Assembly (NCBI GenBank): GCA_003512645.1 | Contig: DOPS01000280.1 | Span: 7,734-39,733 of the forward strand | Length of the DNA stretch: 32,000 nt | From: Desulfosporosinus sp. | GTDB lineage: Bacteria; Bacillota; Desulfitobacteriia; Desulfitobacteriales; Desulfitobacteriaceae | Reading direction: 5' to 3' | In this document: positions 5,035-28,209 of the stretch, one piece after another | Layout of the letters: every line of letters starts with the position of its first letter | How positions within the stretch are numbered: the stretch's first letter is position 1 | Notes under the pieces: generated by a model | What the model was told of the DNA's origin: nothing | The model's input: only the letters and a program-made list of their open reading frames with translations | Databases searched by the model: none | Made by a program: the position numbers and the translations under genes

Positions 5035-6234
5035 TTAAGAAGCATTGGTCACCCATTGATCGACTAAGTAATCCAAAAGAAACCGAAGTCTATCCGTATT
5101 ATAACTACCGTCTGTCAAATTGGACCCTCTGAAGGCTCGCACTAGTGCGTCTTTACCTTCGAGTTCACCTTGATACCTATCTAATTCACGATTGTATGAT
5201 GTCCAACGCAAATAACTTATAGCTGAACTAATTTTGCTCATGTCCAGAAAGCATTCGATTGCAACGGCTGAGCCATTAATGTCTTCAACAGACTCTCCAT
5301 TCGGGCCTATCGTTCTGAAGCTTGAAAAATATTCATGATCGGGCAACTTGCATATATGCAAATTCTTTGGCCTGGATAAATCTCGACATTTTTCAAATTT
5401 CTCAATTCCCGCTGCATCATTATCAAATATCACAAGAATATTGTTTTGTATCTTTATTCTTGATAGTCCTTGGCAAAACCGGAATAGGTTGCCTGTTCCC
5501 GTAAATGGATAATTCTCTTCCATATCCACAAAGTAGAAAAAGTCCGAGATATCAGGATAAAGCGCATTTATTGAACGCTTAATAATAAAGGAGTCAGAAG
5601 AACCTTCTGTAACGACTAATATCTTTGACGTATCAGATAGCGGGATGAACACCTCGTCAAAGCTAACCCATCCTCCTTCCACAATATCAGCGTAACGCCA
5701 CTGAACAAGGAAATCTGCATTTTCGTCTTTCTCAGCAAGTAACCTTAACGTAATATATGGATCCAAGTTTTCAAAAAAAGTGCCTAAATCCTTATCAATA
5801 GTAATACCTTCTGGTAAGTATTGGGATAATTCAGGATCAGCAAAAATATAACGACTAACAAACTCACCCAAATCACAATCATAACAACAATTAGGGTCAA
5901 GTACTATTTTTTGAAGGTCTATTGAACTAATAGCTGAAAGAAATTGTTCAAAAGAAATTGTAACCTCTGAATAATAGCTAGGCATCATTTGAAGATGCTC
6001 TACATATCTCCTTTTTAAAGACTGAAAGGAATACCCCAACAGATCCAACCGTTTCTTTAGAGAGCCTAACTTTCGTGAGAATCCTTCTTTCATTTCAACA
6101 ATATCATCAGCATAATAATAAGGAATTTGCATGACGTCAAATCGTTGAAACAAACACGAATGATCTGTAAAGGAATTATTCTTTCCCCAATCTATCTCAA
6201 ATTTATCGATCCCCAAGGTGATCATTGAACCCAT
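5035..6234 (-). CDS. Stand-alone Toprim-domain protein (OLD/AriB/DUF4435-like) with a HEPN/Toprim-associated N-terminal domain
   Basis: The ORF track gives 5035-6270 from a GTG. The ATG at 6234 lies 9 nt after GGGGG and is the better start. Toprim glutamate: ILVVTEGSSDSFIIKR. DxD: LVIFDNDAAGIEKF. The N-terminus ITLGIDKFEIDWGKNN..LFQ resembles the HEPN_Toprim_N family as I recall it. No ATPase partner gene is adjacent. Confidence 0.55.
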   Translation of the reverse strand: MGSMITLGIDKFEIDWGKNNSFTDHSCLFQRFDVMQIPYYYADDIVEMKEGFSRKLGSLKKRLDLLGYSFQSLKRRYVEHLQMMPSYYSEVTISFEQFLSAISSIDLQKIVLDPNCCYDCDLGEFVSRYIFADPELSQYLPEGITIDKDLGTFFENLDPYITLRLLAEKDENADFLVQWRYADIVEGGWVSFDEVFIPLSDTSKILVVTEGSSDSFIIKRSINALYPDISDFFYFVDMEENYPFTGTGNLFRFCQGLSRIKIQNNILVIFDNDAAGIEKFEKCRDLSRPKNLHICKLPDHEYFSSFRTIGPNGESVEDINGSAVAIECFLDMSKISSAISYLRWTSYNRELDRYQGELEGKDALVRAFRGSNLTDGSYNTDRLRFLLDYLVDQWVTNAS

Positions 6235-6637
6235 AAGCATTATCCCCCATTTTATAAATTCCCAGAACACAGTGCTAACCTTCTTAATTTTATGCGCAGT
6301 GTCACACGTCGCATAATAGACATAACTACTTTTTAATATTTAGGCATCAGGCCTCGTTACCAATGAGATCGTTCTGATTAGCGTTCTATATTAGTTATTC
6401 CTCTTTATCCAGTCCTCATCTCCGTTGTTTTAGTAAAACATAAGATACACACGTTATAGGAGTCCATAGACTCCTGGGCCTCATGTTTCAGTTACTCATC
6501 TTACTCCAATGAAAATGTAAGCCCTTAAAACCGCAGCTGTCTACGATGGCCTCTGGGGCATTTCAAATACCCCCATATAGTATTTCTAAGTTACTAAAAT
6601 TCTCGAACGCGTTAACCTCTTTCATATTAAAAAAGTG

Positions 6638-7423
6638 TCAGTCAAAAACAAAAAAATGCTCTTTCCAAGGCGAAATCTGAGTTAAACGAATTCCCCTAGC
6701 CCTTAATAGTCCAATATGTTCTGATGAAGGGACAATGAAGAATGCCCTCAATGTACCTCGCTTGTAAAGCAGCGCGAAAATGTTATCAACACCGAGTTTT
6801 TCCTTCAACTGATCTAACCTTTCTTTCATCTGAACTTCGGCTGGTCCACTTCGGCATAAATGATGATAGATAACCAAACTTTGTTCGCGCTTTACGAAGG
6901 GAACCAATTCTTCAAAGAATGTATATTTTGGCCCGGTCTTTTGATGAGATTTAACAGACTTTACCTCTAACCCATTATCAGGATCAACAAAAATCACGTC
7001 GCACCCCAACGTCGCCTCAAGCGCTTTGCTACTCCATCGGTTTCTGTAACTGATCCGTTCGTTTCGAGCAGCAGGACTATTGTTAGACATGCCCTCATAA
7101 CTAAGGGGCGTCTCATAGAAAACAGTCTTTGTTGGTAGCACATTGAACTTTTGAATTATCGAAACATCTCTTTTACCTGCCTTAATGATCTCAGATAGCG
7201 AATCATAAAGAGCTGGATCACCACTTCTGAAACGTGCTAGATTAGACGTTGTCTGCTCTAAATAGCGAATGTGTTTTCCGTCATCGTTGTGATTTTCATC
7301 TGGTACACGATACCAAACGACTCCCAATGATAAATCCAATTCGGTGCTATTTCCCATGCACAATGTTTTTAGTAGATGGTATTTACCAAAATCTCCAATA
7401 TCACCGACATATCTGTTTTGCAT
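6638..7423 (-). CDS. Uncharacterised 261-aa protein, possibly an RlmJ(DUF519)-like fold with a degenerate motif IV (DPDN)
   Basis: Strong SD GAAGGAGT lies 6 nt before the ATG. N-terminal GDIGDFGKYHLLK resembles RlmJ HAGNxADVLKH. VIFVDPDNGLE sits where RlmJ has lIDPPYE. SLVIYHH and RGTLRAFFIVPS parallel later RlmJ strands. The comparison is from memory only. Confidence 0.35.
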   Translation of the reverse strand: MQNRYVGDIGDFGKYHLLKTLCMGNSTELDLSLGVVWYRVPDENHNDDGKHIRYLEQTTSNLARFRSGDPALYDSLSEIIKAGKRDVSIIQKFNVLPTKTVFYETPLSYEGMSNNSPAARNERISYRNRWSSKALEATLGCDVIFVDPDNGLEVKSVKSHQKTGPKYTFFEELVPFVKREQSLVIYHHLCRSGPAEVQMKERLDQLKEKLGVDNIFALLYKRGTLRAFFIVPSSEHIGLLRARGIRLTQISPWKEHFFVFD

Positions 7424-7481
7424 CCTACTACTCCTTCTTCTCTTCTGTACTTAACTTCACTCTTTCTACACGAATTTCTGA

Positions 7482-8219
7482 TTACTTAAGTAAATGAAAA
7501 AGGTCTCTTTTAAGAATTTCTAATACCTTTCGCCTAAATGGTTCAAAAGAATCTCCTTTACTTCCGTAGTATAGGAAGTGACGACAAGCCATAATTACTC
7601 CCGCCTTTCCATTAGAATATTTGAATTGTATCAACGGAGCTTGCAGCTCCATTCCCACTATTGACTGTTCAACATTTATCGTATTGGGAGCGATCAATCC
7701 TCGACTAATAAAAATATCAACTGACTGATCCACCGTTTTCTTGCCATGTAGAATTATCAAGCTTGGCTTAAATTCCGTGACCAAACTATAAAATATATCC
7801 TTACCTTTCTCTATCACAAACTTAGGTTCCTTTTTAAGGGCCTTTAGATTGGCAGTCGGGTAAGGAATAGCATCCGTTTCAAGAATCGATGCGTCTGTAT
7901 AGTTAGAGAGCCAAGAAAAAAATGAATTCATACCGATTCGGGTACGAGATACTTCATCCTTATCCTGGCTTAATCTACTCGCTTTGTAAAAATCCATAAA
8001 CTCTTCGTAGTTTAGAAGTAAGTCGACGTACTTATCTATTTCCATGTCCATAGGGAATATTGGAGTCGCTGGGTTAATCCCCACAAAGAATATGTCTACC
8101 TTAGATAACTCACCCTTGCAGATAAAAGGTCGATAATAGGCTTTGCCAAGTTCTGGTGCCAGACACATTTTCTTAAGAGAATCATGTGAAACCACAGTTA
8201 CCCCTCCCATCTTTTCCAT
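7482..8219 (-). CDS. Uracil-DNA-glycosylase-superfamily-like protein (MUG/TDG-like motif 1)
   Basis: 245-aa ORF. The GTG at 8195 follows GGGAGGGG by 5 nt and is a likelier start than the ATG at 8219. VDIFFVGINPAT compares with E. coli MUG VVFCGINPGL. FKPSLIILHGKKTVDQ compares with MUG PQALAILGKQAYEQ. The second motif diverges (VIMACRHFLYYGS against VLPNPSGLS). Confidence 0.45.
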   Translation of the reverse strand: MEKMGGVTVVSHDSLKKMCLAPELGKAYYRPFICKGELSKVDIFFVGINPATPIFPMDMEIDKYVDLLLNYEEFMDFYKASRLSQDKDEVSRTRIGMNSFFSWLSNYTDASILETDAIPYPTANLKALKKEPKFVIEKGKDIFYSLVTEFKPSLIILHGKKTVDQSVDIFISRGLIAPNTINVEQSIVGMELQAPLIQFKYSNGKAGVIMACRHFLYYGSKGDSFEPFRRKVLEILKRDLFHLLK

Positions 8220-8376
8220 ATTACATTTGAGATAAAAGAGATTGTTTCGCTAATGCCCACTATTTTTGTCATTCCACTCTATCTCGTATCTATTAAACAT
8301 CTCTACTAAACTAAGGAATTCACGTGCCGAGCTGACTGTTTAAATAGTCAAGCCCAGGCTTCTTGTGCCAAAAAAA

Positions 8377-8775
8377 TCACTTTAAGCCTGATAACTCCCG
8401 TAGTCTATATAAAACATTTAAGAAAATCTTCTCCTTTATCACCTGTCCCCAAAACCCATCACAAAACCTTTCCCCACGAACAGAATGTGTGAGAATTGCC
8501 CGCAGGAGTTGAATATCGGCTTCTGCAATATAAATGTTTATTTTGCCAGTGTCGATCTGATTTTTTTCCAGATAATCGAAGTAGTTATTAATTAGCAAAT
8601 CACTATCATAGACGTCCTTGATAAAGCTATGTAGTTTTTCATCGTAAATTGGGTAATCCATTTCGAGCACACCATCGTTGGTTTCAGATGGCCTGTGCGA
8701 CATATACAAATCAAGACTCTCATCCTCGAAATAGCTTATGTATTCCAATAATTTTTGCCAGTTCTCAATTGCCAT
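8377..8775 (-). CDS. Small uncharacterised protein (about 132 aa), possibly DUF6508-like
   Basis: The ORF track starts at 8805. The ATG at 8775 has SD AAGGTGGTGG about 6 nt upstream and lies 1 nt after the TGA of the upstream 76-aa ORF. The C-terminal motif VRGERFCDGFWGQ was recognised only vaguely. Confidence 0.5.
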   Translation of the reverse strand: MAIENWQKLLEYISYFEDESLDLYMSHRPSETNDGVLEMDYPIYDEKLHSFIKDVYDSDLLINNYFDYLEKNQIDTGKINIYIAEADIQLLRAILTHSVRGERFCDGFWGQVIKEKIFLNVLYRLRELSGLK

Positions 8776-8776
8776 T

Positions 8777-9007
8777 TCAATCCACCACCTTAGATTTAAG
8801 TACAATCACCTTACGTTGACAAATTTTTGAACATGCAAGCATACAGTTGCCATTGATCATTTTATTGTCTTTTCGATGTGATACAATTAGGACGCATAAA
8901 GTATGAATATTTTGACTTCTAACCATACACCCATAATGTTCAATCCCCATTAGTTTAGCTGCAAGGTCCCGTAACTTCACCACGCCTTTATGCCATTTAT
9001 TTGGCAA
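8777..9007 (-). CDS. Possible 76-aa Cys/His-rich leader gene of the operon
   Basis: The TTG start at 9007 is preceded by GGAAGGGG. Its stop TGA (8777-8779) is 1 nt from the next ATG, which suggests translational coupling. I recognise no family, and it could be a spurious ORF. Confidence 0.3.
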   Translation of the reverse strand: MPNKWHKGVVKLRDLAAKLMGIEHYGCMVRSQNIHTLCVLIVSHRKDNKMINGNCMLACSKICQRKVIVLKSKVVD

Positions 9008-9110: not shown

Positions 9111-11117
9111 ATGAGCGCAAGCCTTTTCGATCCTTTAGAACAAGATACTGAAATAAACCTTTTTAGCGAACCTTCGCGATCCGGTAATCGAATTGATGTA
9201 GTACAGATGGAGTTTGTCGAAGCAAAAAGTGTGCAGTGGAAGGATTTATTCAAAGGTTTTGATAAAATGTATGCCATCACCTATTCCTCTGGGATGAAGT
9301 TTATCTGTGATTTATTGGAGACATTCCAATATGCCGAAGTTATCTTTGGGTTTGAGGATGTAATGACCTATAGTTTACAGGAAATCATGGCTCACCAATT
9401 GAAAACAATCGAACGTTTGAGATTAACATCGAGTAAAACTAAGATTGATTTGGTTGCCAAAATAGATAACGGTTCTTTGAAAATGTTTGTAGCTCGAAAG
9501 AAATTATCCCACGAAAAGATTTATCTGCTCGAATCTACTGATGGGAAAAAGCGTGTCATTACCGGCTCTGCCAATATGTCCTATTCCGCTTTTTCTGGAA
9601 AGCAAAGGGAAAACATTAGCTATATCGATGGAGATAAGGCCTTTGACTGGTATAAAAATAGTTTTAATGAATTGAAGGAAATGAGTTCTGATAATATCTC
9701 AATTCCTTCACTAACAGTTGCAGATGATTTGGAGAAGGTTGACGAGATTCCGATTATGAGAACAATCCAATTGAAAAAGGCCTTGGTCATCGAACCCGAC
9801 ACAGAGTATAAAGACGATGTCAAATTCGTTCTTGATGTAAAAAACTTAGCCAATAAATTCACTCCATTTATGCCTAAACCCGATAAAAAAGGAAAGCAAA
9901 TCTTGTCGCCTGAGATTGTCGTGCAAACTAGGCGTAGACTGATCGGCGCTGCTGTGCAGGAAAAGGAGTTACGGAGCCAACATCCTCAACTGTTCATAGA
10001 TATTCCACTCATGCAGGTTACTCTTAATGAAACTAAATTAGATTTAAGCCCGACGACAAAGGAAATCCGAAATGATGTGGATTTGTTTCTTGAGTACATG
10101 GCGGGATATCAAAAATTTCATGGTGATACCGAAGGGATGCAATCTAAATACTATGCTTTCGCGAATTGGTTTTTCACAACGCCATTTATGGCCATTATGC
10201 GGGATATGGCAGTGAAATATAACCAGAACCTCCTGCCCTACCCTGTTTTTGGTTTAGTGTATGGTCAAAGTAAAGCTGGGAAGACAACTTTTTTAGAAAC
10301 ACTATTAAAAATGATGATTGGACAAAAGACCAAAATCTCAGCTCCTGATTTTACACGATCAACGATTGATGGGTTAAAAAGAACAGTTCAGGGTGCTCCG
10401 ATCATTGTAGATGACCTCACACAGGCACGATTCTCACAACACGCAATTGAGACCATAAAAAACGATGATTTTGGAGTGGTCGATAATATAACTACCTATC
10501 CAGCCGTGGTAATCAGCGCCAACGAAGATGTAAAAGCTGTTGCTGCCGAGGTTGTCCGGAGAACAGTCATTTGTCACGTTCAAGCCGGACTTAAAAATAC
10601 CGAGCTCATGAGAACAAGTACTGTGAGGCGTGTTCAAAGAAATATCGGAACAGCCTTTTACCGAGAGTATTTAAGGAGAATGATTGCGAAAATTCCCGAG
10701 TTGTTAGATGTCCTAAAGAATGATGAAGATCAAGAAGCTCCAGATATTTTGGAAGTATCCTCAAAAATCTTAGATGAAATTATCTCGGAACACTCCTCTG
10801 AGGTTCCAAACTATGTACGCATACTGACCCTCGATGATTATTTCTCCGAAAAGGTCACTGGTTCCCAGGCGATTAAGAAAATCAAAACCGCATGGCAAAT
10901 CAATCGTAAGGCCTTTGATATTAGCAAAAAACATAATCAGCTTCGATTCAACGCTGGCCAAACGTGGGAGGCCGACCGAATATTAAAAGAACTTCCTGAG
11001 GATTTGGAAGCTCATAAATCTGGAGAATGGATTGTTATGGATTTAAGTAAAGCTTCGGAGTTTTTTGGGATTACCTTCAGTAAATTTGGGGGGTTCCTAG
11101 CCATGTTTAAAGGTTAA
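9111..11117 (+). CDS. Fusion of a single-HKD phospholipase-D-family nuclease domain with an SF3/VirE-like P-loop NTPase
   Basis: 668-aa ORF and the only long plus-strand gene. HKD motif: LSHEKIYLLESTDGKKRVITGSANMS (H134). Walker A: GQSKAGKT (about aa 385-392). Walker B: APIIVDDLT. SF3-like motif C: AVVISANED. Confidence 0.7.
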   Translation: MSASLFDPLEQDTEINLFSEPSRSGNRIDVVQMEFVEAKSVQWKDLFKGFDKMYAITYSSGMKFICDLLETFQYAEVIFGFEDVMTYSLQEIMAHQLKTIERLRLTSSKTKIDLVAKIDNGSLKMFVARKKLSHEKIYLLESTDGKKRVITGSANMSYSAFSGKQRENISYIDGDKAFDWYKNSFNELKEMSSDNISIPSLTVADDLEKVDEIPIMRTIQLKKALVIEPDTEYKDDVKFVLDVKNLANKFTPFMPKPDKKGKQILSPEIVVQTRRRLIGAAVQEKELRSQHPQLFIDIPLMQVTLNETKLDLSPTTKEIRNDVDLFLEYMAGYQKFHGDTEGMQSKYYAFANWFFTTPFMAIMRDMAVKYNQNLLPYPVFGLVYGQSKAGKTTFLETLLKMMIGQKTKISAPDFTRSTIDGLKRTVQGAPIIVDDLTQARFSQHAIETIKNDDFGVVDNITTYPAVVISANEDVKAVAAEVVRRTVICHVQAGLKNTELMRTSTVRRVQRNIGTAFYREYLRRMIAKIPELLDVLKNDEDQEAPDILEVSSKILDEIISEHSSEVPNYVRILTLDDYFSEKVTGSQAIKKIKTAWQINRKAFDISKKHNQLRFNAGQTWEADRILKELPEDLEAHKSGEWIVMDLSKASEFFGITFSKFGGFLAMFKG

Positions 11118-11316: not shown

Positions 11317-12348
11317 TTATCCCGAATGTACTTCTCTATGACAATTCGGGCAAACAGCTATTGCATTATCAACGGTATCTTCACCGCCATCTGTTAATCT
11401 TATAATGTGATGAACTTCAAGATATGGAGTACCGTCAGATCTCCTAATAAACGGTGCTGGTTTTTTACACTTTTCACAAACCCCGTTTGCTCTGACAAGA
11501 ACCTCTGCAATTACATCAGGATTACGTTTAAACACTATTGATATTGTCACATGCGTTTCAGGGATAAGTACCGTTCTACTTTCTAATCGTTTCTTTCTCT
11601 CCTCACTTCCATCCGCCAATGACTTTTGGACTTGCCTATTAAGTTCATCATGATTATCCAGCTGAAAATTTAATTCATTCAGCATCTTTACCATGCTGTC
11701 ATAATGTTTTCTTTCAAGTTCCAGTAACGTCCCCCTGTGATTCTTAATAATATCGCAATTACTCAGCTTTTCCATTATCCTTAAAGTATCCAGATCCAGA
11801 AATATGTTAAAATCTCTGGTTTTCTGAAAATCAACGAAAATTTCATTTTTCTCTTCGTACTTATCCACTACTTGACATATTGCAGTAACTGCTTTAGTCT
11901 CACCTGTTTCATACGCAAGTACAAGATCTCCTATCTGTATGTTCTTAAAGCAGCCTTCATTCTTTCGTTTGCCTCTGTCAGAGTTTAAGTTGGAATAACG
12001 TTGTCTACTGCCAACCTTAACAATTGAAAAGGCCCAATTATAAACCTTAGAATCAATATTTAGCCAGAAATACTTTGGTTGACGCCTGTTTTTCGGAAGA
12101 ATCCGATACTCACCTTTACCAATACGTTCAAAATATACTTTATATGTTGGGCTATGTGTATTTTCCGTTGCATTTGAAAGTATGACCCTCATATGATTTT
12201 CACTTGCTGGAATTCCGTTTCTTTTACAAAAGTCCTTAACCTTCTGAAAAGTAATTGGCTCAATGATCTCTCCTTCAATTACAGCTTTTACTAGTTCATA
12301 TCCTAAGCCTTCACCGTATTTTACCACTTTATCACCCAGCTTTCTCAC
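11317..12348 (-). CDS. EVE/PUA-like domain plus C-terminal HNH endonuclease (predicted modification-dependent, type IV-like restriction enzyme)
   Basis: 343-aa ORF. HNH: CEKCKKPAPF..LEVHHIIRLTDGGEDTVDNAIAVCPNCHREVH. Middle: YFWLNIDSKVYNWAF..IQIGDLVLAYETGETKAVTAICQV, EVE/PUA-like. N-terminus: YFERIGKGEYRIL, winged-helix-like. The GTG start at 12348 has no obvious SD, so the start is uncertain. Confidence 0.6.
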   Translation of the reverse strand: MRKLGDKVVKYGEGLGYELVKAVIEGEIIEPITFQKVKDFCKRNGIPASENHMRVILSNATENTHSPTYKVYFERIGKGEYRILPKNRRQPKYFWLNIDSKVYNWAFSIVKVGSRQRYSNLNSDRGKRKNEGCFKNIQIGDLVLAYETGETKAVTAICQVVDKYEEKNEIFVDFQKTRDFNIFLDLDTLRIMEKLSNCDIIKNHRGTLLELERKHYDSMVKMLNELNFQLDNHDELNRQVQKSLADGSEERKKRLESRTVLIPETHVTISIVFKRNPDVIAEVLVRANGVCEKCKKPAPFIRRSDGTPYLEVHHIIRLTDGGEDTVDNAIAVCPNCHREVHSG

Positions 12349-12986: not shown

Positions 12987-13561
12987 TCACGAAACAAATC
13001 CGACCGGCCGGGAGGGATTGTGCCGGGAATTCAAATATATATCACCTGTTGTATTTCTTGAAGTCCAGTATCTTCCGGTTAGTTGATCGACATCGTCTAA
13101 CTCGATTCTGCATGTCCCATATTGCATGGGATTTTCATAACCATGTCTGCCTTTGGGGTTCGTTATGTATGTGTAGTACATCACATAGGCTCCATTTTCC
13201 TCGATTATCTCACTAGATATCGATGCACTTGTTATTTCATCTGTAATTATTTTAATACGAGTAGAAAATAAACTTTGCTTAACGGAATATTGGTAGCCTT
13301 TTCTCCGTCTACACCATTATAGCGGTATTCTATCTTTCCGATGTAATTTTGATTTAATCTCGGAATTTTCTCCAAAGGATTCCAACGCCATCCCCATTTA
13401 ACATAAATGATTGATAGTAACGTTGTACTAGTTATAGCGTATCCAGCATAACTGGTGTAATTAGCAAAAACGATTGGTTCTTTTATGTAACAACATAGGG
13501 AAAACACTAGGATAGCGAATACTATGATAGATTTTATATATCCTTTCTGTTTATCGCTCAT
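12987..13561 (-). pseudogene. CBASS effector, 2TM + beta-strand-rich (Cap15/S-2TMbeta-like), interrupted by a 1-nt frameshift
   Basis: The first ORF (13247-13561) has two TM helices (IIVFAILVFSLCCYI and YAITSTTLLSIIYV) followed by KWGWRWNPL..YIGKIEYRYNGVDGEK. The reading continues in the adjacent frame as GYQYSVKQSLFSTRIKIITDE..YVMYYTYITNPKG..GTCRIELDDVDQLTGRYWTSRNTTGDIYL, with a stop at 12987. The frames switch at the coding-strand run GGAGAAAAGGC (T4 at 13299-13302). One extra A restores a protein of about 191 aa. Confidence 0.6.
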
Positions 13562-13563
13562 AG

Positions 13564-14559
13564 TTAGGCTTCCTGAATATCATATTGGTAAAAGTCACTC
13601 AATGCTATTATAAAGGTTTTATAATTCTCTCTGTCTGAGGTAGTCGGAAACAGCGTTTTGATACCATTTGCTTCCTTGCATGTGCCAAAATTGTCAAAGT
13701 CACCTCTAAGATGGATGATCAGTTCATCAAATGTGTATCTATAGACAGAAGGATATTTTGCGTAAACAGCATTTGGAATGTTCCAAAGCAAGGATTCCAA
13801 CCCGAAAGATGACACATTTTTAGGACTTGAATATTCGTAATCAAGCATTAATTGTTTCATTTTCTTCATAATACGGACGTGCTTTTTAAAGCAATAGTTT
13901 GTAGCATTATTTTTAGCTCTACCATTTTTAATATGTTGTTCAGGGTAATTGATAATATTTCCCCCACTGTCTGGCCTTATTTCTATACCACCCACATAAT
14001 TATTGGCATCAAAGTGATAATCTTCACGATAATCTCTAAATCGATAAGCTGGTACAACATCAGCATCCACCCGATAACTATTACCATGAACCTTAATAGA
14101 TTTATCCTTGCGTTCAACACCCTCACCGTTGAATTTCCTCTTTAAGGCAGACTCAACTTCGTCTTTTAGTTTCTGCGCAGTGAACGTGCCATCAGTAAAA
14201 TTATAACTCTTTTTTGTTACTTCAATTCTGTATTCCGGAATAAACGTTGACTCTAGAATAACAGCAACATCCACGTCACTCTGAGTACGGATATTCGTAT
14301 TATTTGCATATGAGCCCTGTACCAGCAAAACAATTTTCTTGCCCATGTCACCATGCAGGTCTAATGAGAATGCCCATGTGTCAGTTTCATAGGAACGAAT
14401 TTCTTTGTTGTTATCGGTATATCCCACCAATTTCATTGCGTCTCTAATCATACGAATTGCGTTTTTACAACGTTCTTCCTCAGTTGCACTAAGCGGCGTT
14501 GCGTATGTTATTAATTGTGATTCTTTAAAATTCAACGCTATTCCTCCTCTAACAATCAT
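13564..14559 (-). CDS. CD-NTase (cGAS/DncV-like nucleotidyltransferase, SMODS) of a type I CBASS
   Basis: Active-site pattern: LLVQGSYANNTNIRTQSDVDVAV plus a third Asp in YRVDADVVPAY. C-terminal FGLESLLWNIPN. The stop lies 2 nt from the effector ATG. The likely true start is the TTG at 14535 (MNFKESQL), 7 nt after AGAGGAGGA. Confidence 0.75.
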   Translation of the reverse strand: MIVRGGIALNFKESQLITYATPLSATEEERCKNAIRMIRDAMKLVGYTDNNKEIRSYETDTWAFSLDLHGDMGKKIVLLVQGSYANNTNIRTQSDVDVAVILESTFIPEYRIEVTKKSYNFTDGTFTAQKLKDEVESALKRKFNGEGVERKDKSIKVHGNSYRVDADVVPAYRFRDYREDYHFDANNYVGGIEIRPDSGGNIINYPEQHIKNGRAKNNATNYCFKKHVRIMKKMKQLMLDYEYSSPKNVSSFGLESLLWNIPNAVYAKYPSVYRYTFDELIIHLRGDFDNFGTCKEANGIKTLFPTTSDRENYKTFIIALSDFYQYDIQEA

Positions 14560-14732: not shown

Positions 14733-17700
14733 TCAAATAATATCAATTAATCGCACCTCATAAGCGATCCTCTCACCCGCCACCCTATAAACATAAACAT
14801 GCTCCCTAATCAAACCATAATCCTGCTCCATTAAATCTTGGCTAAGCTCCCCTTCATTCGACGTCAAGATAATATATCGACTAACACCTTCAGTATCTTC
14901 GCTGATAAAATCAACCAAGCCATATGCATCCATCCTTTTCAGATTAAGCCTGCCTTGGTGGGTTTCATAATCTTTAACGATGCTTTCAAAATCATTGGGA
15001 ATTAAACGGCTATAGGGTGAATCTTCATAGGGTTGCACCTTAAATTGTGCTACCTTTTTCACAGAACGTAATTGTATGCTACGCTCCCTCTCGATTTCCT
15101 CTAATCGATCATGGCGACGCTCTTCTAGATCCTCAATCTGACTGATGGTCTGGTTGATCAGAGCACTATTTTTATGTGCGACATCTTCAGTCTGATATCT
15201 TTGCAGGCGCTCATAAAGGGTCGTCATTTGGGTATCAAATGAACGTCTTAAAAATTGACTTTTGCGATTCAGTAACTCTTCACGGCCTAGACGCAATGTG
15301 ATTAACTGTAGACGTGCTTGTTTAATGACTTCTCCCTTAAAGGTTTCGTCTTCAGATATGCCGATCTCCGTCCCCTTGATCGTGTCACTAAACAGCCAAT
15401 AGGGGGACAAGCGAATATAGGCACCATTAGCCCGCTTGGCCAGCAACAGCAAGCTGCGTTCTAATTCCCGTCCTTGCCCATTCACAAAACTAATTTCATT
15501 CAACTCAACAGTCATAGGTTCGTTCACTTTACACCTTATACTGCAAGTCGGCAGTGATATTCGTTGGACATCTTGCTCGGCATAAGCCAAGGCTAACTTA
15601 TAGAGTGGATGATCATTGGCTAAAAGTAATAAATCTTCAGTCTCTTTATCTTCCTTGACCGTAAACCGGTACGTTCCTTCATCACTGAAATGGATCTTAT
15701 GCTTTTTGCTAAAGTCTCGCACAGATTTAGGAATACGATCTATACGAATGATAGACTTATCATTTGATAGATTCAATTTCAAACGTGTTGACTGTAATTG
15801 TTCTAAAGCAAACTGTCCGTAGACACGCGCAGGTATGCTTTCCAGGGATAATTCATTATAGGAACGCCTCACTCCTGGGAGATCAAAGCTTTGATCATCG
15901 AGCCGCTCTTCTCGAGCTTGTTCCAGGAGCCGGCGATGTTCTTCTGATAAACGTTTTTCCATCTGAGCGATCAGATCATCAAGATTTTCTCTTCCAGAAA
16001 TAGCTTTTTCCATGAGGCTTGCCAGATCAATCTCCTCTTCTTCCAGAACTTCTCCAATGAAATCGTAGACAAGCTCCTGGCCTAGATCAACGCGCATTTG
16101 CTCAAGCTTCTCTAATAGACGTTTCATGACTTCCCCTTCGCGAGTGTTCACTGCCACAAGGTTAAAGACAAAGACTTCGTTCCTTTGCCCAATTCTATGA
16201 ATACGCCCCATACGCTGCTCGAGTCTGTTCGGATTCCATGGAACATCGTAATTAATCAACTGATTACAAAATTGAAGGTTGATTGATTCTCCACCAGCAT
16301 CGGTTGCCAACATAATCTGGACGTCACCCCGGAACTTTTCAATTTCTTCCCGACGTCGATCCATTGAGAAATCCCCTACAATTTTTGCCACCGATGGTAC
16401 CCGATCAAGTAAGCGCCGTTCTAAATAATTCAGGGTATCTTTGGCCTCCGAAAAAAGAAGAATTTTTTCTCCTTTGGCTAAAAGGCCCTCTGGTCCAAAC
16501 AAGGTAGATTCTAACTCTTGATATTTTCGCTCCACATCACTCAAGCGAACTCCATTGGCCTTTCTAATTAAATCCGTCAATTCATTGATTTCTAGCTGCA
16601 ATTCATAGAGGTCAATCGCATCCGTTTCGCCCTCCGCAACGCCCTCTAGTTCATCTTGTTCTTCAACTGTGGCCTCTTCATACTCCTCAATGGAGAAAAC
16701 ACGGACTTGTTTCAGCTCGTTTTTCAGGACATCTTCAAGCCGTTCTTTACGCCGTACCAACGATAAATAAATCGCCTCAATAGACGAGCTCAGCCTTCGT
16801 TGCAAGAGCATCATAGCAAATGCCGTACTGTGATTATTATTCTTTTTGGCCCGGTTAAAATGCTCACTGACATAGGACGTGACATCGTTATATAACTCTA
16901 ATTCATCAATGGACAAATTAAAGGCTAAGGTTTGAGTGGTCCGCTTAGGAAATAAGGGCGTACCATCAAAGGTGACCATAGACTCTTTCAAGCGACGAAT
17001 GATAAAGGGATTGGTTTTCTCATACAAAGAGTCGCTGGTATTGAGGTTCGAAAACAGATCATGGTCTATGAGGTTCATTAAGTGGCGAAAGTTCTCTTTA
17101 TCTCCCTTATGCGGGGTAGCCGTTAATAACAAACAGTGTTCTGCATTTCGCAAGAGCACTTCCCCAAGTTGATACATCTTAGTTCTTTGAATTTTTCGCT
17201 GCTTTACCCCATGAGTGTAGGCCGCCATTTTATGCGCTTCATCCACAATGATCAGATCGAATTTAGAACGGATCAAATAGTTTTTGACATCCTCACGCAT
17301 TGCCCAGTAAAGTGAGGCCAGGCAATTGTCGTGTTGATCAAATGGATTGAGATTACCAGATTCACGTAGCGTAGTGCGAGAAATGATCTTAAACTCTTCA
17401 CCAAACTTCTCACTTAACTCTTCTTGCCATTGAGGGAGCACCAGGGGGGGTACAAGAATCAGGATTCTCTCGACACTTTGTCTAGCCAATAATTCTCGAA
17501 TAAGCATTCCCGCCATAATTGTTTTTCCTGCACCTGGGTCATCCGCCAGCAAAAAACGCACCTGTGGGGTTTGCAACATTCGGCTGTAAACAGCTTCAAT
17601 TTGATGGGGTAAAGGTATAATCTGTTGGTTTCCTCGCATCCTTGACTTAGAATATCGTTCATCTAGCTTGAGAACATGGTACCGTAAGTAATGACTGATT

Positions 17701-17909
17701 TGATCGAGGGTAGCAACAGGATTAAGGTTTTCTTGTAATAATTCTAACGACTCAAGCTGTTCTAACTCCAGATAGCTTTCATAATACTCTCTCGTCTGGC
17801 GACCAATAGCCTCTACTAAGAAGAGGATCTTATCGATGGGTTCACATTTCTTTATTTCTACTGTTTCCGCCCAATAGGGACCTTGGATGATATCACCAAC
17901 TTTAATCAA
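14733..17909 (-). CDS. brxHII: SNF2-family helicase occupying the BrxL position of the BREX locus (BrxHII-like), with a C-terminal extension of about 450 aa
   Basis: 1058 aa. TTG start 8 nt after GGGGG. Motifs: LADDPGAGKT (I), IIVDEAHKM (II), LLLTATPHKG (III), QRMGRIHRIGQ (VI). It starts 90 nt downstream of pglZ. Confidence 0.7.
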   Translation of the reverse strand: MIKVGDIIQGPYWAETVEIKKCEPIDKILFLVEAIGRQTREYYESYLELEQLESLELLQENLNPVATLDQISHYLRYHVLKLDERYSKSRMRGNQQIIPLPHQIEAVYSRMLQTPQVRFLLADDPGAGKTIMAGMLIRELLARQSVERILILVPPLVLPQWQEELSEKFGEEFKIISRTTLRESGNLNPFDQHDNCLASLYWAMREDVKNYLIRSKFDLIIVDEAHKMAAYTHGVKQRKIQRTKMYQLGEVLLRNAEHCLLLTATPHKGDKENFRHLMNLIDHDLFSNLNTSDSLYEKTNPFIIRRLKESMVTFDGTPLFPKRTTQTLAFNLSIDELELYNDVTSYVSEHFNRAKKNNNHSTAFAMMLLQRRLSSSIEAIYLSLVRRKERLEDVLKNELKQVRVFSIEEYEEATVEEQDELEGVAEGETDAIDLYELQLEINELTDLIRKANGVRLSDVERKYQELESTLFGPEGLLAKGEKILLFSEAKDTLNYLERRLLDRVPSVAKIVGDFSMDRRREEIEKFRGDVQIMLATDAGGESINLQFCNQLINYDVPWNPNRLEQRMGRIHRIGQRNEVFVFNLVAVNTREGEVMKRLLEKLEQMRVDLGQELVYDFIGEVLEEEEIDLASLMEKAISGRENLDDLIAQMEKRLSEEHRRLLEQAREERLDDQSFDLPGVRRSYNELSLESIPARVYGQFALEQLQSTRLKLNLSNDKSIIRIDRIPKSVRDFSKKHKIHFSDEGTYRFTVKEDKETEDLLLLANDHPLYKLALAYAEQDVQRISLPTCSIRCKVNEPMTVELNEISFVNGQGRELERSLLLLAKRANGAYIRLSPYWLFSDTIKGTEIGISEDETFKGEVIKQARLQLITLRLGREELLNRKSQFLRRSFDTQMTTLYERLQRYQTEDVAHKNSALINQTISQIEDLEERRHDRLEEIERERSIQLRSVKKVAQFKVQPYEDSPYSRLIPNDFESIVKDYETHQGRLNLKRMDAYGLVDFISEDTEGVSRYIILTSNEGELSQDLMEQDYGLIREHVYVYRVAGERIAYEVRLIDII

Positions 17910-17999: not shown

Positions 18000-20522
18000 T
18001 TAATAAAGCGCCTGGTACATTCTGAGTGTGAACACTTCATCACGATAAAGCTCGACCTTACCCGCTCGAATCGTCTCAATCCTTAACGTGCATGTTTCTC
18101 CTAGCGCATAATGACCTTCTGCCAAGGTGAATAAAACTGAGACATTCCGCTCCATCGCCTCGCCCGTTAAGTCAAACGTATAGATCACTTCATTAGAAGT
18201 TCTCTCGCCATTCTTATAAAAAGCCATCTTAACTTGTCGTAGCAATACATCGTTGGATATCCTTTTCTCTTGGTAGAAAGTTACCTGTTGTCGATAGTTC
18301 GTAATGATCTTATCTGGAGTTGCCACATTGATGTCGACCAGCTCGGCATCGGCAGTGCGGCGATAATCAATCAATGGAATAACCATTTCTTGGGGCATGG
18401 CTCCACCGTGAATGAATTGCAACCCCCCTGCTCCGATAAAACGGTTTAACCCTTTAGTGATCACTGCCTCACAATTAAGGATGACTGCTTCTTCTGGTAG
18501 GCGAATAGCCCCTTCCGGAACAGTTAAGCCCTTTCCTAAAGCGAAGCGTCGATTCTTATCATAGATTTCACCGGTGACCGCCTTGACCTTAGCGTCCGCT
18601 TCCACTTTATTATATTGAAATAAAAAGCCGTGGTCAGCGGTAATAAAGATCCGCTTAGCCTGAAGACGAGAGAGCTTGTCCACCGCATCCTTTAAGGCCG
18701 CAATCGTTCGTTCGACCGCTTCATACGTCTCACGCTCGGTTTTTGCTGTATCCCCCGTCGCATCAATTACATCATGATATAAATAAACCAAACGTTTGCG
18801 CTTGAACTTCTCATCAGCCTCACTAGGCGACCAATCCATGAAATCCCCTAGACGATAACAAACGGCTTCAGGACAATACGCTTGTAAAATAGCTTCTCGG
18901 TTGATTATCCCACGGGTTGATTTTTCATCGACATAGACTGTTCCACCTTCATCAATACGCATTTCACGGTGGGGCAACAGACACGCCATTCCCAGTTGGG
19001 TATAACTCGGCAAACTAACCTTCATGGGTTGAATTGATGCCTCTCCATTGATGCGTTGATTGAGCTGATCTGTTAGATCACGCCCCACCTCATAGCGAAA
19101 GGCATCGGAAATGATCACGAAAATCTTTGTCTGTTCCTTGTTTATAACTGGGCGAATCTTATCAGTAAAGAACTGTTCCTGCTTCAACATCTTACCCTTG
19201 GACTCGACCGTTCCTTCACATAACCAAGCATTAGTTTCTTCTGCCATACGCACAAGATACACATTTTCATACCAATTGGTCAGTTGTTCGATTAAAGGGT
19301 ATAGCAACTCCTTTTGTTCTATATGTAAATAATTTTGCATTAAGTGACGATAAATTTGGTCAATTTTATACCATTCATCTGCGTAAAGACTTAAGAAACT
19401 ATCCCATGACGAAGAATTAGAAGCAAACTTCTTGACCAGCATTTTTAGTTCAGTAAGTTTAATCACATGACTCAACACATCATAGTAACCGGCTAGTTTC
19501 TCCTTTTTCCCCCAATGGGTCTGTCTGTGAGCATTAATTCGCTCGCTCCAGGCACGAAGATCAGCCGTTTGATGCCTAATCTGATCGATCATTTGCTCGA
19601 TTAGTAGCCCCTCTGTCGAAGGGAATGTCGAAGTACGATCATAGGCCTCTAGTGGTTTTGCAATGAGCTGCTCGGGTATCCTGTACTTAGATTCAAACTC
19701 TTTAATATATCCCTCTAATTTCTCTACCTTCGGCTTTTCTTCCCGAAACCAGTCCTCAATAAAGAGAGCACAGGTATTTGGCAAGGTCGAATCTAAGCTC
19801 TGTATCAAAGGGGGATCAATAAGTGCAGCACTAGCAAAATGTTGATAAATCGTAATTTCCATTAAGTTTAATAAAGGATTACCGACCTCATCGATCGCGA
19901 TTCCAAAGTGGGGTAGAATTAACTTCCACATGCGATCGAGGGAGAAGAACTTAGCCACCTTTTTTAAGCCCTCATTGTTAGTTGAATCTAGTCCTAAGTA
20001 TAAGAGCTGCTGGGTAATATCGGGTATGGTCAGCGAGGGGGAACCGATAAGGACAGCAATCATCGCGCTTTCAACCATCTTCTGATCTGCTTTTGCAGGT
20101 AAAATACGCTTTAACTTCTGCTTGCGCTCTTTACCTTTAAAGAACGCAGCAAAGTCCTCCACCATAGGGCGGATGACATGATCCTCTACCTGCAGTTCCT
20201 CGACGACCATAGCAATCTCGTCCGACTTAAACTCCGCTCCATAAAGCAGTATATCCAGTAAGTAATTCTTATCATCCCTTGGACGAGGAAAGGAGGCATA
20301 GAGAATAAAGGAGGTATGGGGATGTTTAATTTCTATGTCATATTTGAGACGAAAGAAGTTATTTTGTGTTATGCGTCGTACTTCCATTGCTTCTGCCACA
20401 AACTCTAGTTCCAACTCAGCAAAGTCCATCTGTTCACTGGCGTCATACCAGAAAAGAATGGCGCGTGGTTTAGCATCGTTCTCTTGAGTAATTTTCTCGC
20501 GCAGTGACTGTATCAAATCCAT
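18000..20522 (-). CDS. pglZ: BREX PglZ (alkaline-phosphatase-fold protein)
   Basis: 840 aa. Motifs: FVIISDAFRYE and RIFITADHGF. The position directly after pglX is canonical for BREX. Confidence 0.85.
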   Translation of the reverse strand: MDLIQSLREKITQENDAKPRAILFWYDASEQMDFAELELEFVAEAMEVRRITQNNFFRLKYDIEIKHPHTSFILYASFPRPRDDKNYLLDILLYGAEFKSDEIAMVVEELQVEDHVIRPMVEDFAAFFKGKERKQKLKRILPAKADQKMVESAMIAVLIGSPSLTIPDITQQLLYLGLDSTNNEGLKKVAKFFSLDRMWKLILPHFGIAIDEVGNPLLNLMEITIYQHFASAALIDPPLIQSLDSTLPNTCALFIEDWFREEKPKVEKLEGYIKEFESKYRIPEQLIAKPLEAYDRTSTFPSTEGLLIEQMIDQIRHQTADLRAWSERINAHRQTHWGKKEKLAGYYDVLSHVIKLTELKMLVKKFASNSSSWDSFLSLYADEWYKIDQIYRHLMQNYLHIEQKELLYPLIEQLTNWYENVYLVRMAEETNAWLCEGTVESKGKMLKQEQFFTDKIRPVINKEQTKIFVIISDAFRYEVGRDLTDQLNQRINGEASIQPMKVSLPSYTQLGMACLLPHREMRIDEGGTVYVDEKSTRGIINREAILQAYCPEAVCYRLGDFMDWSPSEADEKFKRKRLVYLYHDVIDATGDTAKTERETYEAVERTIAALKDAVDKLSRLQAKRIFITADHGFLFQYNKVEADAKVKAVTGEIYDKNRRFALGKGLTVPEGAIRLPEEAVILNCEAVITKGLNRFIGAGGLQFIHGGAMPQEMVIPLIDYRRTADAELVDINVATPDKIITNYRQQVTFYQEKRISNDVLLRQVKMAFYKNGERTSNEVIYTFDLTGEAMERNVSVLFTLAEGHYALGETCTLRIETIRAGKVELYRDEVFTLRMYQALY

Positions 20523-20565: not shown

Positions 20566-23500
20566 CTATATCTTAGCAAGGACCTTCTGTAGTTTCGCGT
20601 AGTTTACTTTCACGCCGTCATCTAAGTCTAGGGCAATTTGAGCATTGGCATATACTGCTAAGACTTTATCAAAATCGATTAACTCTTCAATCCGCCTACG
20701 GAAGAGTTCTTTCTTTTTCTCAAAGGCCCGCTTTTCCACAGCGCTCAAGGATGGGTTAACCAAACGCATTTCCAAAGTATCGATCTCGTTGCTATACTTG
20801 GCTTGGATTTCTTGCAATTGTTCGAAACGAATTGTAGCTAAGGTATCTGGTTGATAGCGATGTAGGTAGATGAGCGTACGTAACCCTTTGGCACTGCCTG
20901 AATCAACGAGCCAGTAGATGGGACGCTTCTGATAAATTTGACAATGGTCTTTGAAGAACTCGTCCAGGAAATAACGTCTGATTCTCTCCTCAGTCGATTC
21001 ATTATTCCTCTGGGTGAGTGATTCAGCAATCCAAGCAAGATTTTCTTCGACGGTATCTTCACTAAAAGTGACAGATAGAAATGTTTTTAGATGAGAGATG
21101 ATATCATTTTCAAAATAGGCGTCATCTGTTAAAAGAATTAAGCCATTCCTGTTAGGAGTGAATTTGTGATAGTTTGATGCATCAAAATCACCACCAGCAT
21201 ATGCAAGCCCCTCAAGATCGAGCGAGTATCTACCCATGACGCAGCCGATGAAGTACGATAAGAATGATTTGCTATCACGCAGGCGATCAGCTTTACGTAC
21301 GGTTACTTCTTCATCTGGGACTTCGGGCGTCATCTCATCTTGGAGTCCGTATTGTTCAATAAAAATACGATTTAGGGATTCTTCGTTGGATTTAAGCTGG
21401 GTGAACCTGTTATCTGCTTCGTTAATCCATCTTGAATAAGTATCCGAGAGTTTAGGAATTTCCTCTTCATGACACAACCATGGATGCCTAATAAAATCCC
21501 ATGATATTTCAGAGGAATTCCAATCTAACCGTGAAATTGAAATATTCTCGTTTACCTTTGATCGTATTTCGATTTTAGAGTGAGGTATTATTACAGGGAG
21601 ATTCTTAATGTTACCAACTTGGGAATGCATGGTAGGATTCAAGATCTTTAGCATTTCTACAGAAATATGACAACACATAAACCCCAGTAATAATTCGTAT
21701 TCATCATTACTAGGAAACGCCATCGAACCCGAGTTATCGAATAAGAATCCTTTAGGGAGAAATCTAACACCAAAATAACTTGAACTAACATCAGACCAAG
21801 TAATTCCTTGGCGAAAGAAGTAGCTTTTGTTTCTAATAATGGAGCGATTGAAGTTTTTAATCCATTGTCCGTCATTTTCCCAGTTAACAACATATTCCTG
21901 ATTTCCGTACCACTTTCTAAATGTACCACCTTTATTATATGGGAACCACTTTCTTTTACTAATTAATGCCTCCTTATAATCCTCAGAGTCAAACCCTATT
22001 TTTTGCATATTTACTTCGAACCAAAATCTTAAAAACTGATCATTATCACCAGTTTCCATCCCTTTCCTTGCCTCTGCTAGTTCATCTAATGTCAAAAATT
22101 CCTTGAATATTTTCCGAACCTGATCTGAACTCCAATAAGCAATTGGCGATCCAGGTATATCTAAGAATCTTTCCGAGCTTACTATTGCATATCGATTTTT
22201 CTTTACTGGAAAAACGCTAGGAATTCCCTCAACTAAATCCTCCAATTCTACATAATTAAATACGCCAACTTGTTTTTTAATACTCCTTAGTATTGTAGCG
22301 CATGTTCCAAATGCAATTCCCATAACGTTATTCCCCATATGTGTCATATTCAAAATCGAAAATTCTTGCAGCAGATGCTTTCGATAATCTTCATATGAAG
22401 ATAAGAACATCCAAGATTGCATCGTGACAGAAACATGGAAGCCAAAAGGTTTAACAAACGATTCCATACGTTCCATAAATACAGCGAATAAATCTGCTTT
22501 ACTATTTTTGTAGTTTTCTCTCAGATGCTCTGACAGCTTTGAATTCATTCCTTTATTGCCCATATAAGGGGGGTTGGTAATGACAATTTCATATCGGTCA
22601 GCAAGGGTCATAGCCTGCGATAATAGTTGTTCAAGTCTCGACAATAGATTTCTCTCGTTATTCACAAATAAGTTCTCGTTAAGCTGAGCCTTTAACCGTT
22701 CTACTTTAGTTAAATACTTGTTAAAATCGATCTGAATAGGCTTTAAAATACTGCCATAATTCTTAGCATCAATAAATGTTCGCAAAAGCAATTCTAATTG
22801 CATTACTTCATCTTCATTTTCCGCAATAAGCGGAACTACTCCCTCATCTAATAAACCATTCGACTCTTGAATCGAAATTATATTGATCTGAGGGGGATTG
22901 CGGAAAATGCGTCTTGATTTCGCTCTCGCTTTCATGAAGAGCGCAAAGGATGCTAGTTGGGCTGCACGGTCATCAATATCAATTCCAAATAAGTTCTTTT
23001 CTAAAATAAGAGTTGGAATATCACTCACGACATAGCCCCGCTCTTCATATATGGAATAGAGCAAATCAAAGGCATAGACCAGAATATGCCCTGACCCACA
23101 GGCAGGGTCTAGCAAACGGATGTTTTCCGGCGATAGTTTAGGGTTCTTTAGCTCTTCTAGTTGTTTCTTCACTTCTTCTGATTGTTCGGCTGATTCCACA
23201 TAATATCTCATTTCAGGCTTTATTGATGATTCGGGATGGGCTTCTAACCACAGGGTCCCCAAAGAATTCTCGACCATGTAGCGTACAATCCAGTTGGGTG
23301 TAAAAAGTTGAGTGGCTGCAGGGATGTCCTCTTTGATAATTTTAATATTTTTCTTTAATTTTGCGGAAACTTCATCCTTTTTTTCAGAGATATAATACTG
23401 ATACAACCAGCCAATCACTTCGACTTCCTGAAAGCTAGCAGTAAGTTCTTCATCCTTCACAAGCTCATTGATTACTGATTCACTGTCTAACAAGAAATCA

Positions 23501-27629: not shown

Positions 27630-27654
27630 GAAATTCATCTCCTGTTTCTTCCAT

Positions 27655-28209
27655 CTAGATTCTCGATAACAGATACTGGTCTTCGTTATTTAGTCGATGA
27701 AATAAGCGCAGATTAAGTCCTGTAAATTGCCCAGGGTAAAATAATACGACCGTACGACGATACGCATAGGTAGATAATAACTTAAGCAGTTTACTTGAGC
27801 GCATTAGGGGAAAAGCATTTCCTACTCCGGTGATGAAGATAAGCTCTGCATTCCCAGCTTCCTTGATAAAGGACTCGACTAGAGTCTGTTCATTATCTAG
27901 GACCGTTTCTGTCGTTTCGACTAAGCCGCTCAGACCTTCTTCATCACTTATTTCTAAGAGTTCCTCGAGATCCCCCTCGAATAGATTCAGAAAGAACTCA
28001 AATAGGTTGATATTCTTTATTCTAAGCGTGGATTGCTCGATTAGGGCTTTGAGATAAATACGTACCTTTAGCTCATCCTCGGCAGGGTAATCAAACACAT
28101 AATGAGGAATTTCACTTCCTATTCCCTTGGGGGTAGTAAAACCCTGCTTGTGGATTCGGTTTTCGAGGTTATTTAAACGTTCATAGGTTTCAGCGTTCAA
28201 TTGATTCAC
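27655..28209 (-). CDS. brxB: BREX BrxB (DUF1788)
   Basis: 184 aa. The GTG start directly abuts the brxA stop (TAGGTG). Motifs: FITGVGNAFPLMRS and VVLFYPG. The position between brxA and brxC is canonical. Confidence 0.8.
   Translation of the reverse strand: MNQLNAETYERLNNLENRIHKQGFTTPKGIGSEIPHYVFDYPAEDELKVRIYLKALIEQSTLRIKNINLFEFFLNLFEGDLEELLEISDEEGLSGLVETTETVLDNEQTLVESFIKEAGNAELIFITGVGNAFPLMRSSKLLKLLSTYAYRRTVVLFYPGQFTGLNLRLFHRLNNEDQYLLSRI

Follow-up and report, generated by a model that had tools for sequence, protein, structure and literature searches.

Antiviral DNA glycosylases, which comprise the Dag families and Brig1-3, came to light as recently as 2024-2026. Brig1, Brig2 and Brig3 belong to the UDG superfamily (PMC11078745; 10.1101/2025.10.29.685425; 10.64898/2026.02.25.707755). 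Brig1 is a DNA glycosylase for alpha-glucosyl-5-hydroxymethylcytosine (alpha-glucosyl-5hmC) (PMC11078745), and Brig3 is the 5hmC glycosylase of a two-gene operon, Brig3-BapA, in which it is paired with an ASCH-like deglucosylase; both Brig1 and Brig3 retain residual uracil activity (10.64898/2026.02.25.707755). In the present study we examined a block of genes (positions 6638-9007) on a stretch of 32,000 nucleotides from Desulfosporosinus sp. (GCA_003512645.1, contig DOPS01000280.1), referred to below as the window. The block is located in a defence island, in the tail of a type 1 BREX system, and encodes a protein of the DUF6508 family, a UDG-superfamily glycosylase-like protein (UDGL) and a protein with the fold of RlmJ (RlmJL). 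On balance, we consider it probable that the block is a patchwork of cargo genes, each mobile on its own, in the variable BREX tail, with DUF6508 and UDGL forming a module and RlmJL standing apart from it. The best reading of the DUF6508-UDGL pair is that of a Brig-like module that would excise modified bases.

UDGL resembles Brig1 in several respects. Both are assigned to the UDG-superfamily fold with Sulfolobus tokodaii UDG (4ZBY) as best structural neighbour, both carry a G-x-N-P motif 1, and each is encoded by one small defence-island gene, sometimes near BREX/Pgl. An ADP-ribosylglycohydrolase (ARH) gene recurs beside brig1, and also adjoining brig3, and DUF6508, the neighbour of UDGL, is elsewhere fused to an ARH. 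Homologues of Brig1 are mostly actinobacterial, whereas the UDGL family is clostridial. Brig3-BapA offers a second parallel, being a UDG-superfamily glycosylase with a small to medium-sized accessory gene in a defence island, and DUF6508 may correspond to an accessory that widens or enables the recognition of decorated bases. The two arrangements differ in that BapA, an ASCH-like hydrolase with a double beta-barrel, is encoded downstream of brig3, whereas DUF6508 comprises about 130 aa and is encoded upstream of UDGL; RlmJL likewise has a Rossmann-type RlmJ fold rather than an ASCH fold. BapA, being ASCH-like, was excluded as a homologue of either RlmJL or DUF6508.

Genes of the block

A preliminary description of this block listed four minus-strand open reading frames (ORFs), all of which are present. 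The features of the block are as follows, RBS denoting a ribosome-binding site and AF2 AlphaFold2:

6638-7423, minus strand: RlmJL, the RlmJ-fold gene, 261 aa (homologues, AF2 model and Foldseek)
7424-7481, minus strand: spacer between the glycosylase gene and the RlmJ-like gene, 58 nt, with the RBS GAAGGAG for the RlmJ-like gene
7482-8195, minus strand: UDGL, the UDG-superfamily glycosylase-like gene, 237 aa from GTG 8195 (gene calls, RBS and homologue N-termini)
8196-8376, minus strand: spacer between the DUF6508 gene and the glycosylase gene, 181 nt from GTG 8195 (157 nt under the 245-aa start)
8377-8775, minus strand: DUF6508 gene, 132 aa from ATG 8775 (Pfam PF20118 and gene call)
8777-9007, minus strand: 76-aa ORF, non-coding (TTG start; uncalled on four assemblies)

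Of the four ORFs, three are genuine genes, each with numerous homologues, and the ERFCDG, GDIGDFGKY and DPDNG motifs pointed out earlier are present in the sequence. The 132-aa product matches Pfam PF20118 (DUF6508) with an E-value of 6e-26 (91.2 bits versus a cut-off of 23.6) across profile positions 4-126 of 129; a longer ORF form exists (8377-8805, 142 aa), and gene callers give the 132-aa form. The glycosylase-like gene is present as the 245-aa ORF originally described (7482-8219), the product of which has 99 homologues. Its start is most likely GTG 8195, giving 237 rather than 245 aa, because gene callers and homologue N-termini agree on this codon and the RBS GGGAGGGG precedes it, so that the gap to the DUF6508 gene measures 181 nt and not the 157 nt first reported. 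More than 1234 bacterial and archaeal proteins are homologous to the 261-aa product, and every one is annotated as 'hypothetical'. Both the glycosylase-like and the DUF6508 products of the window are 100% identical to existing database entries.

The fourth ORF is spurious. It occupies the divergent intergenic or promoter region between a plus-strand gene for a PLD nuclease-ATPase fusion (PLD-ATPase) and the DUF6508 gene, and was ruled out as a gene since it was never called by gene callers on four assemblies, its TTG start lacks a usable RBS, and the homologous stretch in the related locus L015 (78% nucleotide identity over the ORF) contains many 1-2-nt indels that break the frame. Its codon score, 0.08, is the lowest of the block. 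The TGA-A-ATG junction between the 76-aa and 132-aa ORFs does exist, but the translational coupling once read into it carries no meaning.

No match at E<=1 was obtained for any of the four block products with PADLOC-DB 2.0, which holds no model for the three real ones, in agreement with the original view that the set corresponds to no named defence system. Neither UDGL nor RlmJL was matched in scans of Pfam, NCBIfam, PADLOC and PHROGs, in sequence and profile searches of the PDB, or by tblastn against phage genomes. Scans of IMG/VR yielded no match for UDGL, only five distant ones for RlmJL and only two distant ones for DUF6508. UDGL, RlmJL and DUF6508 are not typical phage genes. Literature searches returned nothing relevant on an RlmJ-like family, on RlmJ with phage defence or on PurZ with dCTP deaminase, and full-text searches found no paper mentioning DUF6508.

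Independent occurrence and mosaicism

The glycosylase and the RlmJ-like protein had been proposed to be paired in one operon or system, a claim that their distribution does not support. Matches to the RlmJL family occur in at least 527 species, and among 80 genome loci taken from these none has a UDGL or DUF6508 gene within 8 kb. Conversely, RlmJL was found at one of 53 metagenome loci of the UDGL family (L096, 92% identity). The two genes are therefore not co-conserved, an outcome that the preliminary description itself had named as refuting its proposal, and each is present or absent independently of the other in close relatives of the window.

The related loci differ from the window by individual genes. 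L015 keeps the PLD-ATPase gene, a 65-nt 5' remnant of the DUF6508 gene, RlmJL and the DUF6884 gene, and is without window positions 8709-7438 and without the HEPN/Toprim gene. L096 has UDGL, RlmJL, the DUF6884 gene, a 145-aa gene and the DUF2779 gene, without DUF6508, and L106 has UDGL alone. At L148 a YjbQ gene is located upstream of DUF6508 and UDGL, so that DUF6508 with UDGL is the sole pair seen in two different surroundings. The UDGL and RlmJL genes of L096 (5875-7528) both appear to be split by frameshifts, which could reflect either pseudogenisation or assembly error.

The spacer upstream of the glycosylase gene (8196-8376) probably holds its promoter. It also contains a recombination breakpoint relative to L096, at about window position 8244, where homology with that locus starts. 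No sequence conservation was found among four spacers separating DUF6508 from an effector gene, no significant or stable RNA structure was predicted for the spacer (z = -0.51), and promoter and terminator scans performed at chance level.

DUF6508 and its partners elsewhere

DUF6508 appears from its sequence to be a small stand-alone adaptor-like protein, with an invariant R-x-ERFC-x-G motif in the family alignment. A profile search found 2190 clusters. Most of the best 150 are close to 130 aa in length; 112 of them are stand-alone proteins, and 24 exceed 240 aa and are fusions. At other loci DUF6508 is followed co-directionally by GmrSD, next to an Mrr-like gene (L149/L150), or by an EEP nuclease (L151), with gaps of 85-124 nt. 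Fusion partners (P0241, P0284, P0329, P0283, P0315 and P0299; L159:4386-5303) comprise an AbaSI/PvuRts1I-type 5hmC-dependent restriction enzyme (E 1.6e-71), a DraG-like ARH, YbiA/NADAR, MacroD, an EEP domain of the same family as the L151 nuclease, a DUF2779 domain resembling the protein encoded at 804-2783 of the window and, in one protein (P0299; profile E 6e-38), an RlmJ-like domain. Additional fusions identified by eye are apparently with PD-(D/E)xK-like nucleases, a Cys-X5-Arg phosphatase, HIRAN and TPR.

These associations show that DUF6508 pairs promiscuously with enzymes attacking or processing modified DNA, which is the best available argument that the glycosylase encoded downstream of it targets a modified base. 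The suggestion of a modified-base glycosylase, first made for the whole block, is consequently plausible for the DUF6508-UDGL pair only, DUF6508 being found elsewhere with restriction enzymes dependent on 5hmC or glucosyl-5hmC. UDGL has in common with GmrSD and AbaSI/PvuRts1I the DUF6508 partner, by adjacency (GmrSD) or by fusion (AbaSI-like), and the same kind of island position; it would differ from them in removing a base, whereas their nuclease domains cut the backbone.

In the mechanism we propose, DUF6508 (8377-8775) and UDGL (7482-8195) would act as a two-gene module. By analogy, UDGL would extrude a base from the DNA helix and cleave its N-glycosidic bond by hydrolysis, leaving abasic sites that would block replication of the invading DNA. 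The substrate would most likely be a modified pyrimidine, of the 5hmC or 5-hydroxymethyluracil (5hmU) type or a decorated form, because DUF6508 is attached elsewhere to enzymes specialised for such DNA. DUF6508 itself may serve as an adaptor, sensor or regulatory domain for effectors. RlmJL (6638-7423) is expected to be a separate unit, an enzyme whose target is either a nucleotide or a nucleic-acid base.

The glycosylase-like protein

Members of the UDG superfamily have an alpha/beta fold with a central parallel sheet, common to UDG families 1-6. Motif 1, G-x-[DNEQ]-P-[GA], carries the catalytic or water-positioning residue, and motif 2, close to the C-terminus, is a loop of the HPS type with His or Asn. 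An AF2 model of UDGL based on the family alignment (pLDDT 91.8) retrieved exclusively UDG-superfamily structures (UDG, UdgX and TDG) among the top 50 Foldseek matches in the PDB, with probabilities of up to 1.00 and TM-scores of 0.45-0.56, the best being the family-4 UDG 4zby (E 2e-5), followed by Thermotoga maritima UDG, UdgX and TDG. A structure search of a viral library likewise returned UDGs, along with UDG-like domains from phage polymerases. The fold assignment of the preliminary description is thus upheld, and its label 'MUG/TDG-like' fits the GINPA form of motif 1, which resembles that of MUG, TDG and SMUG, but not the best structural neighbours, which are family-4 UDG and UdgX. At the sequence level the window protein had no match to Pfam PF03167 at E<=1, and 13 of 57 relatives match this UDG model weakly (best E 5.5e-4).

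Motif 1 of UDGL reads V-G-I-N-P-A-T-P and lies just after the strand at residues 33-38, with G39, N41, A43 and T44 invariant across 57 sequences; by analogy with MUG, TDG and SMUG1 we infer a catalytic role for it. Other conserved motifs are S83-x-T85-R86, E106-T107...Y112-P113-T114 and C-R-H206-F-M-Y-Y-G, the last of which follows the final strand in the alignment and contains the invariant H206.

All examined relatives with at least 42% identity to UDGL occur in variable, defence-rich or mobile contexts. These include type I-C Cas3; HerA with OLD-UvrD; Mrr with a type I restriction-modification system; BrxD with an Lhr-like helicase and DndB; SIR2-STALD with TIR; and an S_4TM effector. Two loci, L009 (6001-7900) and L149 (4000-9500), both lie beside a DUF1659-DUF2922-YvrJ trio (32-39% identical), next to which L009 has Mrr and the glycosylase, and L149 an Mrr-like gene together with SNase, DUF6508 and GmrSD. 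The two loci thus seem to have a hotspot in common, with the glycosylase and a type IV enzyme as alternative cargo.

The RlmJ-fold protein

The RlmJ-like fold proposed for the 261-aa protein is supported by structure comparison. Its AF2 model, built on the family alignment (pLDDT 91.7), matched Escherichia coli RlmJ (6qe5/4blw/6qe0; E 1.5e-6 to 9e-6) and DUF519 (2oo3; E 6.5e-5) in Foldseek, all with a probability of 1.0, and nothing significant beyond these, the next match having an E-value of 0.035. E. coli RlmJ is the 23S rRNA m6A2030 methyltransferase (PF04378/DUF519), to which RlmJL is similar in fold and length. By manual comparison, the N-terminal motif G-D-x-G-D-x-G-K-Y of RlmJL resembles G-N-x-x-D-x-x-K-H of RlmJ, giving a shared G-[ND]-x-x-D-x-x-K-[HY], and a D-P motif is found at the same relative position in both. 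The two proteins differ in that hhalign detects no sequence-level relation (prob 0.2) and none of the 54 aligned RlmJL members match the RlmJ model PF04378. The RlmJL alignment of these 54 sequences has 40 invariant columns, including DPDNG (D147-P148-D149-N150-G151), where RlmJ has DPPYE with the motif IV DPPY, and RlmJL shows an acidic loop, P-D-E-x-H-N-x-D-G-K, in place of the glycine-rich DTHAGAG loop of RlmJ. Because the DPPY motif and the glycine-rich cofactor loop have been lost and an invariant acidic pocket gained, RlmJL is probably not an rRNA m6A methyltransferase.

RlmJ is encoded at a housekeeping locus, whereas RlmJL genes are located in islands, in mobile surroundings or in a distinct cassette. 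Many of its loci are solitary copies near transposases and toxin-antitoxin genes; at L011 (7023-8876), on a transposon-rich Desulfitobacteriia contig, three tandem DUF7387-HicA pairs adjoin the gene. In other phyla its conserved partners are nucleotide-metabolism enzymes. A PurA/PurZ-like gene is found within 4 kb of RlmJL in 20 of the 80 genome loci, accompanied in 15 of the 80 by a dCTP-deaminase-like (DCD) gene. The cassette, which is absent from the window, comprises a PurA/PurZ-like synthetase, a DCD protein, RlmJL and a P-loop kinase, and occurs in Chloroflexota and Alphaproteobacteria (Dehalococcoidia, Kordiimonas, Emcibacter and Rhodospirillaceae). The synthetase is short and scores under both NCBIfam cut-offs (PurA and PurZ), the kinase resembles the N-terminal domain of the anti-phage dCTP deaminase, and start and stop codons overlap within the cassette of L021 (5960-9396). 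PADLOC recognised no system in the cassette except for a weak kinase match to an anti-phage dCTPase. Cassettes were noted at L021, L013, L014, L022-L035, L038, L042, L045, L061, L064 and L076, and some encode a fusion of the kinase with the PurA-like protein that is transcribed divergently.

Alternative explanations

A number of observations weigh against a mosaic in which DUF6508 and UDGL form a Brig-like module apart from RlmJL. Similarity to known structures, as measured by TM-score, is modest (0.45-0.54), and no sequence similarity between UDGL and Brig1 could be detected (hhalign prob 0.3, BLASTP E 0.09; sequence from PMC11078745 supplement 1), with the GxNPG motif alone aligned in the profile comparison; the sequence comparison with Brig families covered Brig1 alone. 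Adjacency of DUF6508 and UDGL was seen in two contexts only, and since DUF6508 is missing at every one of the 53 metagenome loci of UDGL, it is dispensable or only occasionally recruited. More distant relatives of UDGL occur in other settings. A branch at about 37% identity belongs to a housekeeping operon, ybeY-dgkA-UDGL-DUF3048-era-recO, at 15 loci (L117, L119-L128, L130, L131, L135 and L140, from gut-type metagenomes) and may represent a branch concerned with repair. Another at about 40% (L153, Geobacillus thermodenitrificans plasmid pGeo12a 28159-40788; L114, L115, L118 and L132) lies in thymidylate-synthase-like/kinase clusters. With these two branches in such contexts, the family is not uniformly defensive. 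The clusters of the latter branch (39-40%) contain two thymidylate-synthase-like genes, APH, NUDIX, a dTMP-kinase-like ATPase and PqqD, together with CPBP, CYTH and an ABC transporter; they look like a modified-nucleotide or natural-product pathway, and this context would point to 5-substituted pyrimidines.

These branches are also what favours an ordinary role for UDGL, as a repair uracil or mismatch glycosylase or a biosynthetic nucleotide N-glycosidase with no antiviral function, as does the residual uracil activity of Brig1 and Brig3 (10.64898/2026.02.25.707755). We regard this as unlikely, though deserving attention: the members examined at 42% identity and above occupy the variable, defence-rich or mobile contexts listed above, UDGL is present or absent among near-identical islands, and its partner, DUF6508, is part of a network of nucleases that depend on modification. 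A further possibility, which we consider decidedly unlikely, is that DUF6508 is a new sensor or adaptor for hypermodified DNA, that is, glycosylated or ADP-ribosylated DNA, with interchangeable effectors, and that it serves both UDGL and RlmJL here. The effectors would then range from type IV nucleases and hydrolases removing sugar or ADP-ribose to a UDG family that is new and an enzyme of the RlmJ fold whose chemistry is likewise new and not that of a methyltransferase, and the block would constitute a two-effector system against modified phage DNA.

A functional link between UDGL and RlmJL within this island may exist, because their spacer is only 58 nt long with no predicted terminator, so that transcription may read through from one gene into the other, their adjacency is retained in L096, and the natural fusion P0299 joins two of the three families. 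The same observations, with the shared direction of the genes, favour a single co-transcribed defence system in which modified invading DNA is the joint target of two base-flipping enzymes. We nevertheless judge such a system quite improbable, given co-occurrence at none of 80 and one of 53 loci, RlmJL without UDGL in L015, UDGL without RlmJL in L106, the lack of DUF6508 in L096, and the quite different conserved partners of RlmJL elsewhere. Lower still we place the view that RlmJL is an active S-adenosylmethionine-dependent methyltransferase, either an orphan or a protective DNA or RNA methylase, for example a partner of PLD-ATPase. The class I methyltransferase fold of RlmJ, the match of the PLD domain to RE_NgoFVII and the direct adjacency of RlmJL to the divergent PLD-ATPase gene in L015 are in its favour; it has against it the replacement of DPPY by DPDN and of DTHAGAG by an acidic loop, and the failure of any methyltransferase Pfam model to match any of the 54 RlmJL members. 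The role of PLD-ATPase methylase partner was rejected, as among the 80 loci the two genes adjoin in the closely related L015 only.

The surrounding defence island

As originally described, the block lies between recognisable defence modules, namely type 1 BREX with a CD-NTase-like gene, HNH-EVE, PLD-ATPase, HEPN/Toprim, DUF6884 with GIY-YIG, and DUF2779. The accessory genes of the BREX tail run from the CD-NTase-like gene with its 104-aa partner through HNH-EVE and PLD-ATPase to the studied block, beyond which follow HEPN/Toprim, DUF6884 with GIY-YIG, the 145-aa gene and the DUF2779 protein. Neighbouring features of the window are as follows:

804-2783: DUF2779 protein
5035-6270: HEPN/Toprim gene
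9111-11117, plus strand: PLD (NgoFVII-like) nuclease fused to a P-loop ATPase (PLD-ATPase), candidate defence gene
11317-12348, minus strand: HNH-EVE protein, candidate defence gene
13247-14559, minus strand: CD-NTase-like gene with 104-aa partner, candidate defence gene
14733-17909: SNF2-type helicase with the BREX genes
18000-20522: pglZ (type 1 BREX)
20566-24030: pglX (type 1 BREX)
24057-27638: brxC (type 1 BREX)
27655-28209: brxB (type 1 BREX)
28210-28842: brxA (type 1 BREX)
29286-31829, minus strand: SF1 helicase-PLD protein, candidate defence gene

The HNH-EVE architecture is typical of modification-dependent nucleases. The HEPN/Toprim gene is absent from L015 and L096, which are otherwise collinear with the window, and is split into three ORFs in L003; it is another cargo gene that varies independently.

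Implications

Each new family of antiviral glycosylases would widen the set of phage DNA modifications that can be targeted and provide a detection tool. The locus described here points to a clostridial UDG family without detectable similarity to Brig1. DUF6508 links glycosylases, 5hmC-dependent restriction enzymes and ADP-ribose or sugar hydrolases, and this link could explain why ADP-ribosylglycohydrolase genes recur beside Brig genes. RlmJL belongs to a large, uncharacterised RlmJ-fold family, and its cassette with PurZ-like, DCD and kinase genes suggests an unexplored nucleotide chemistry.

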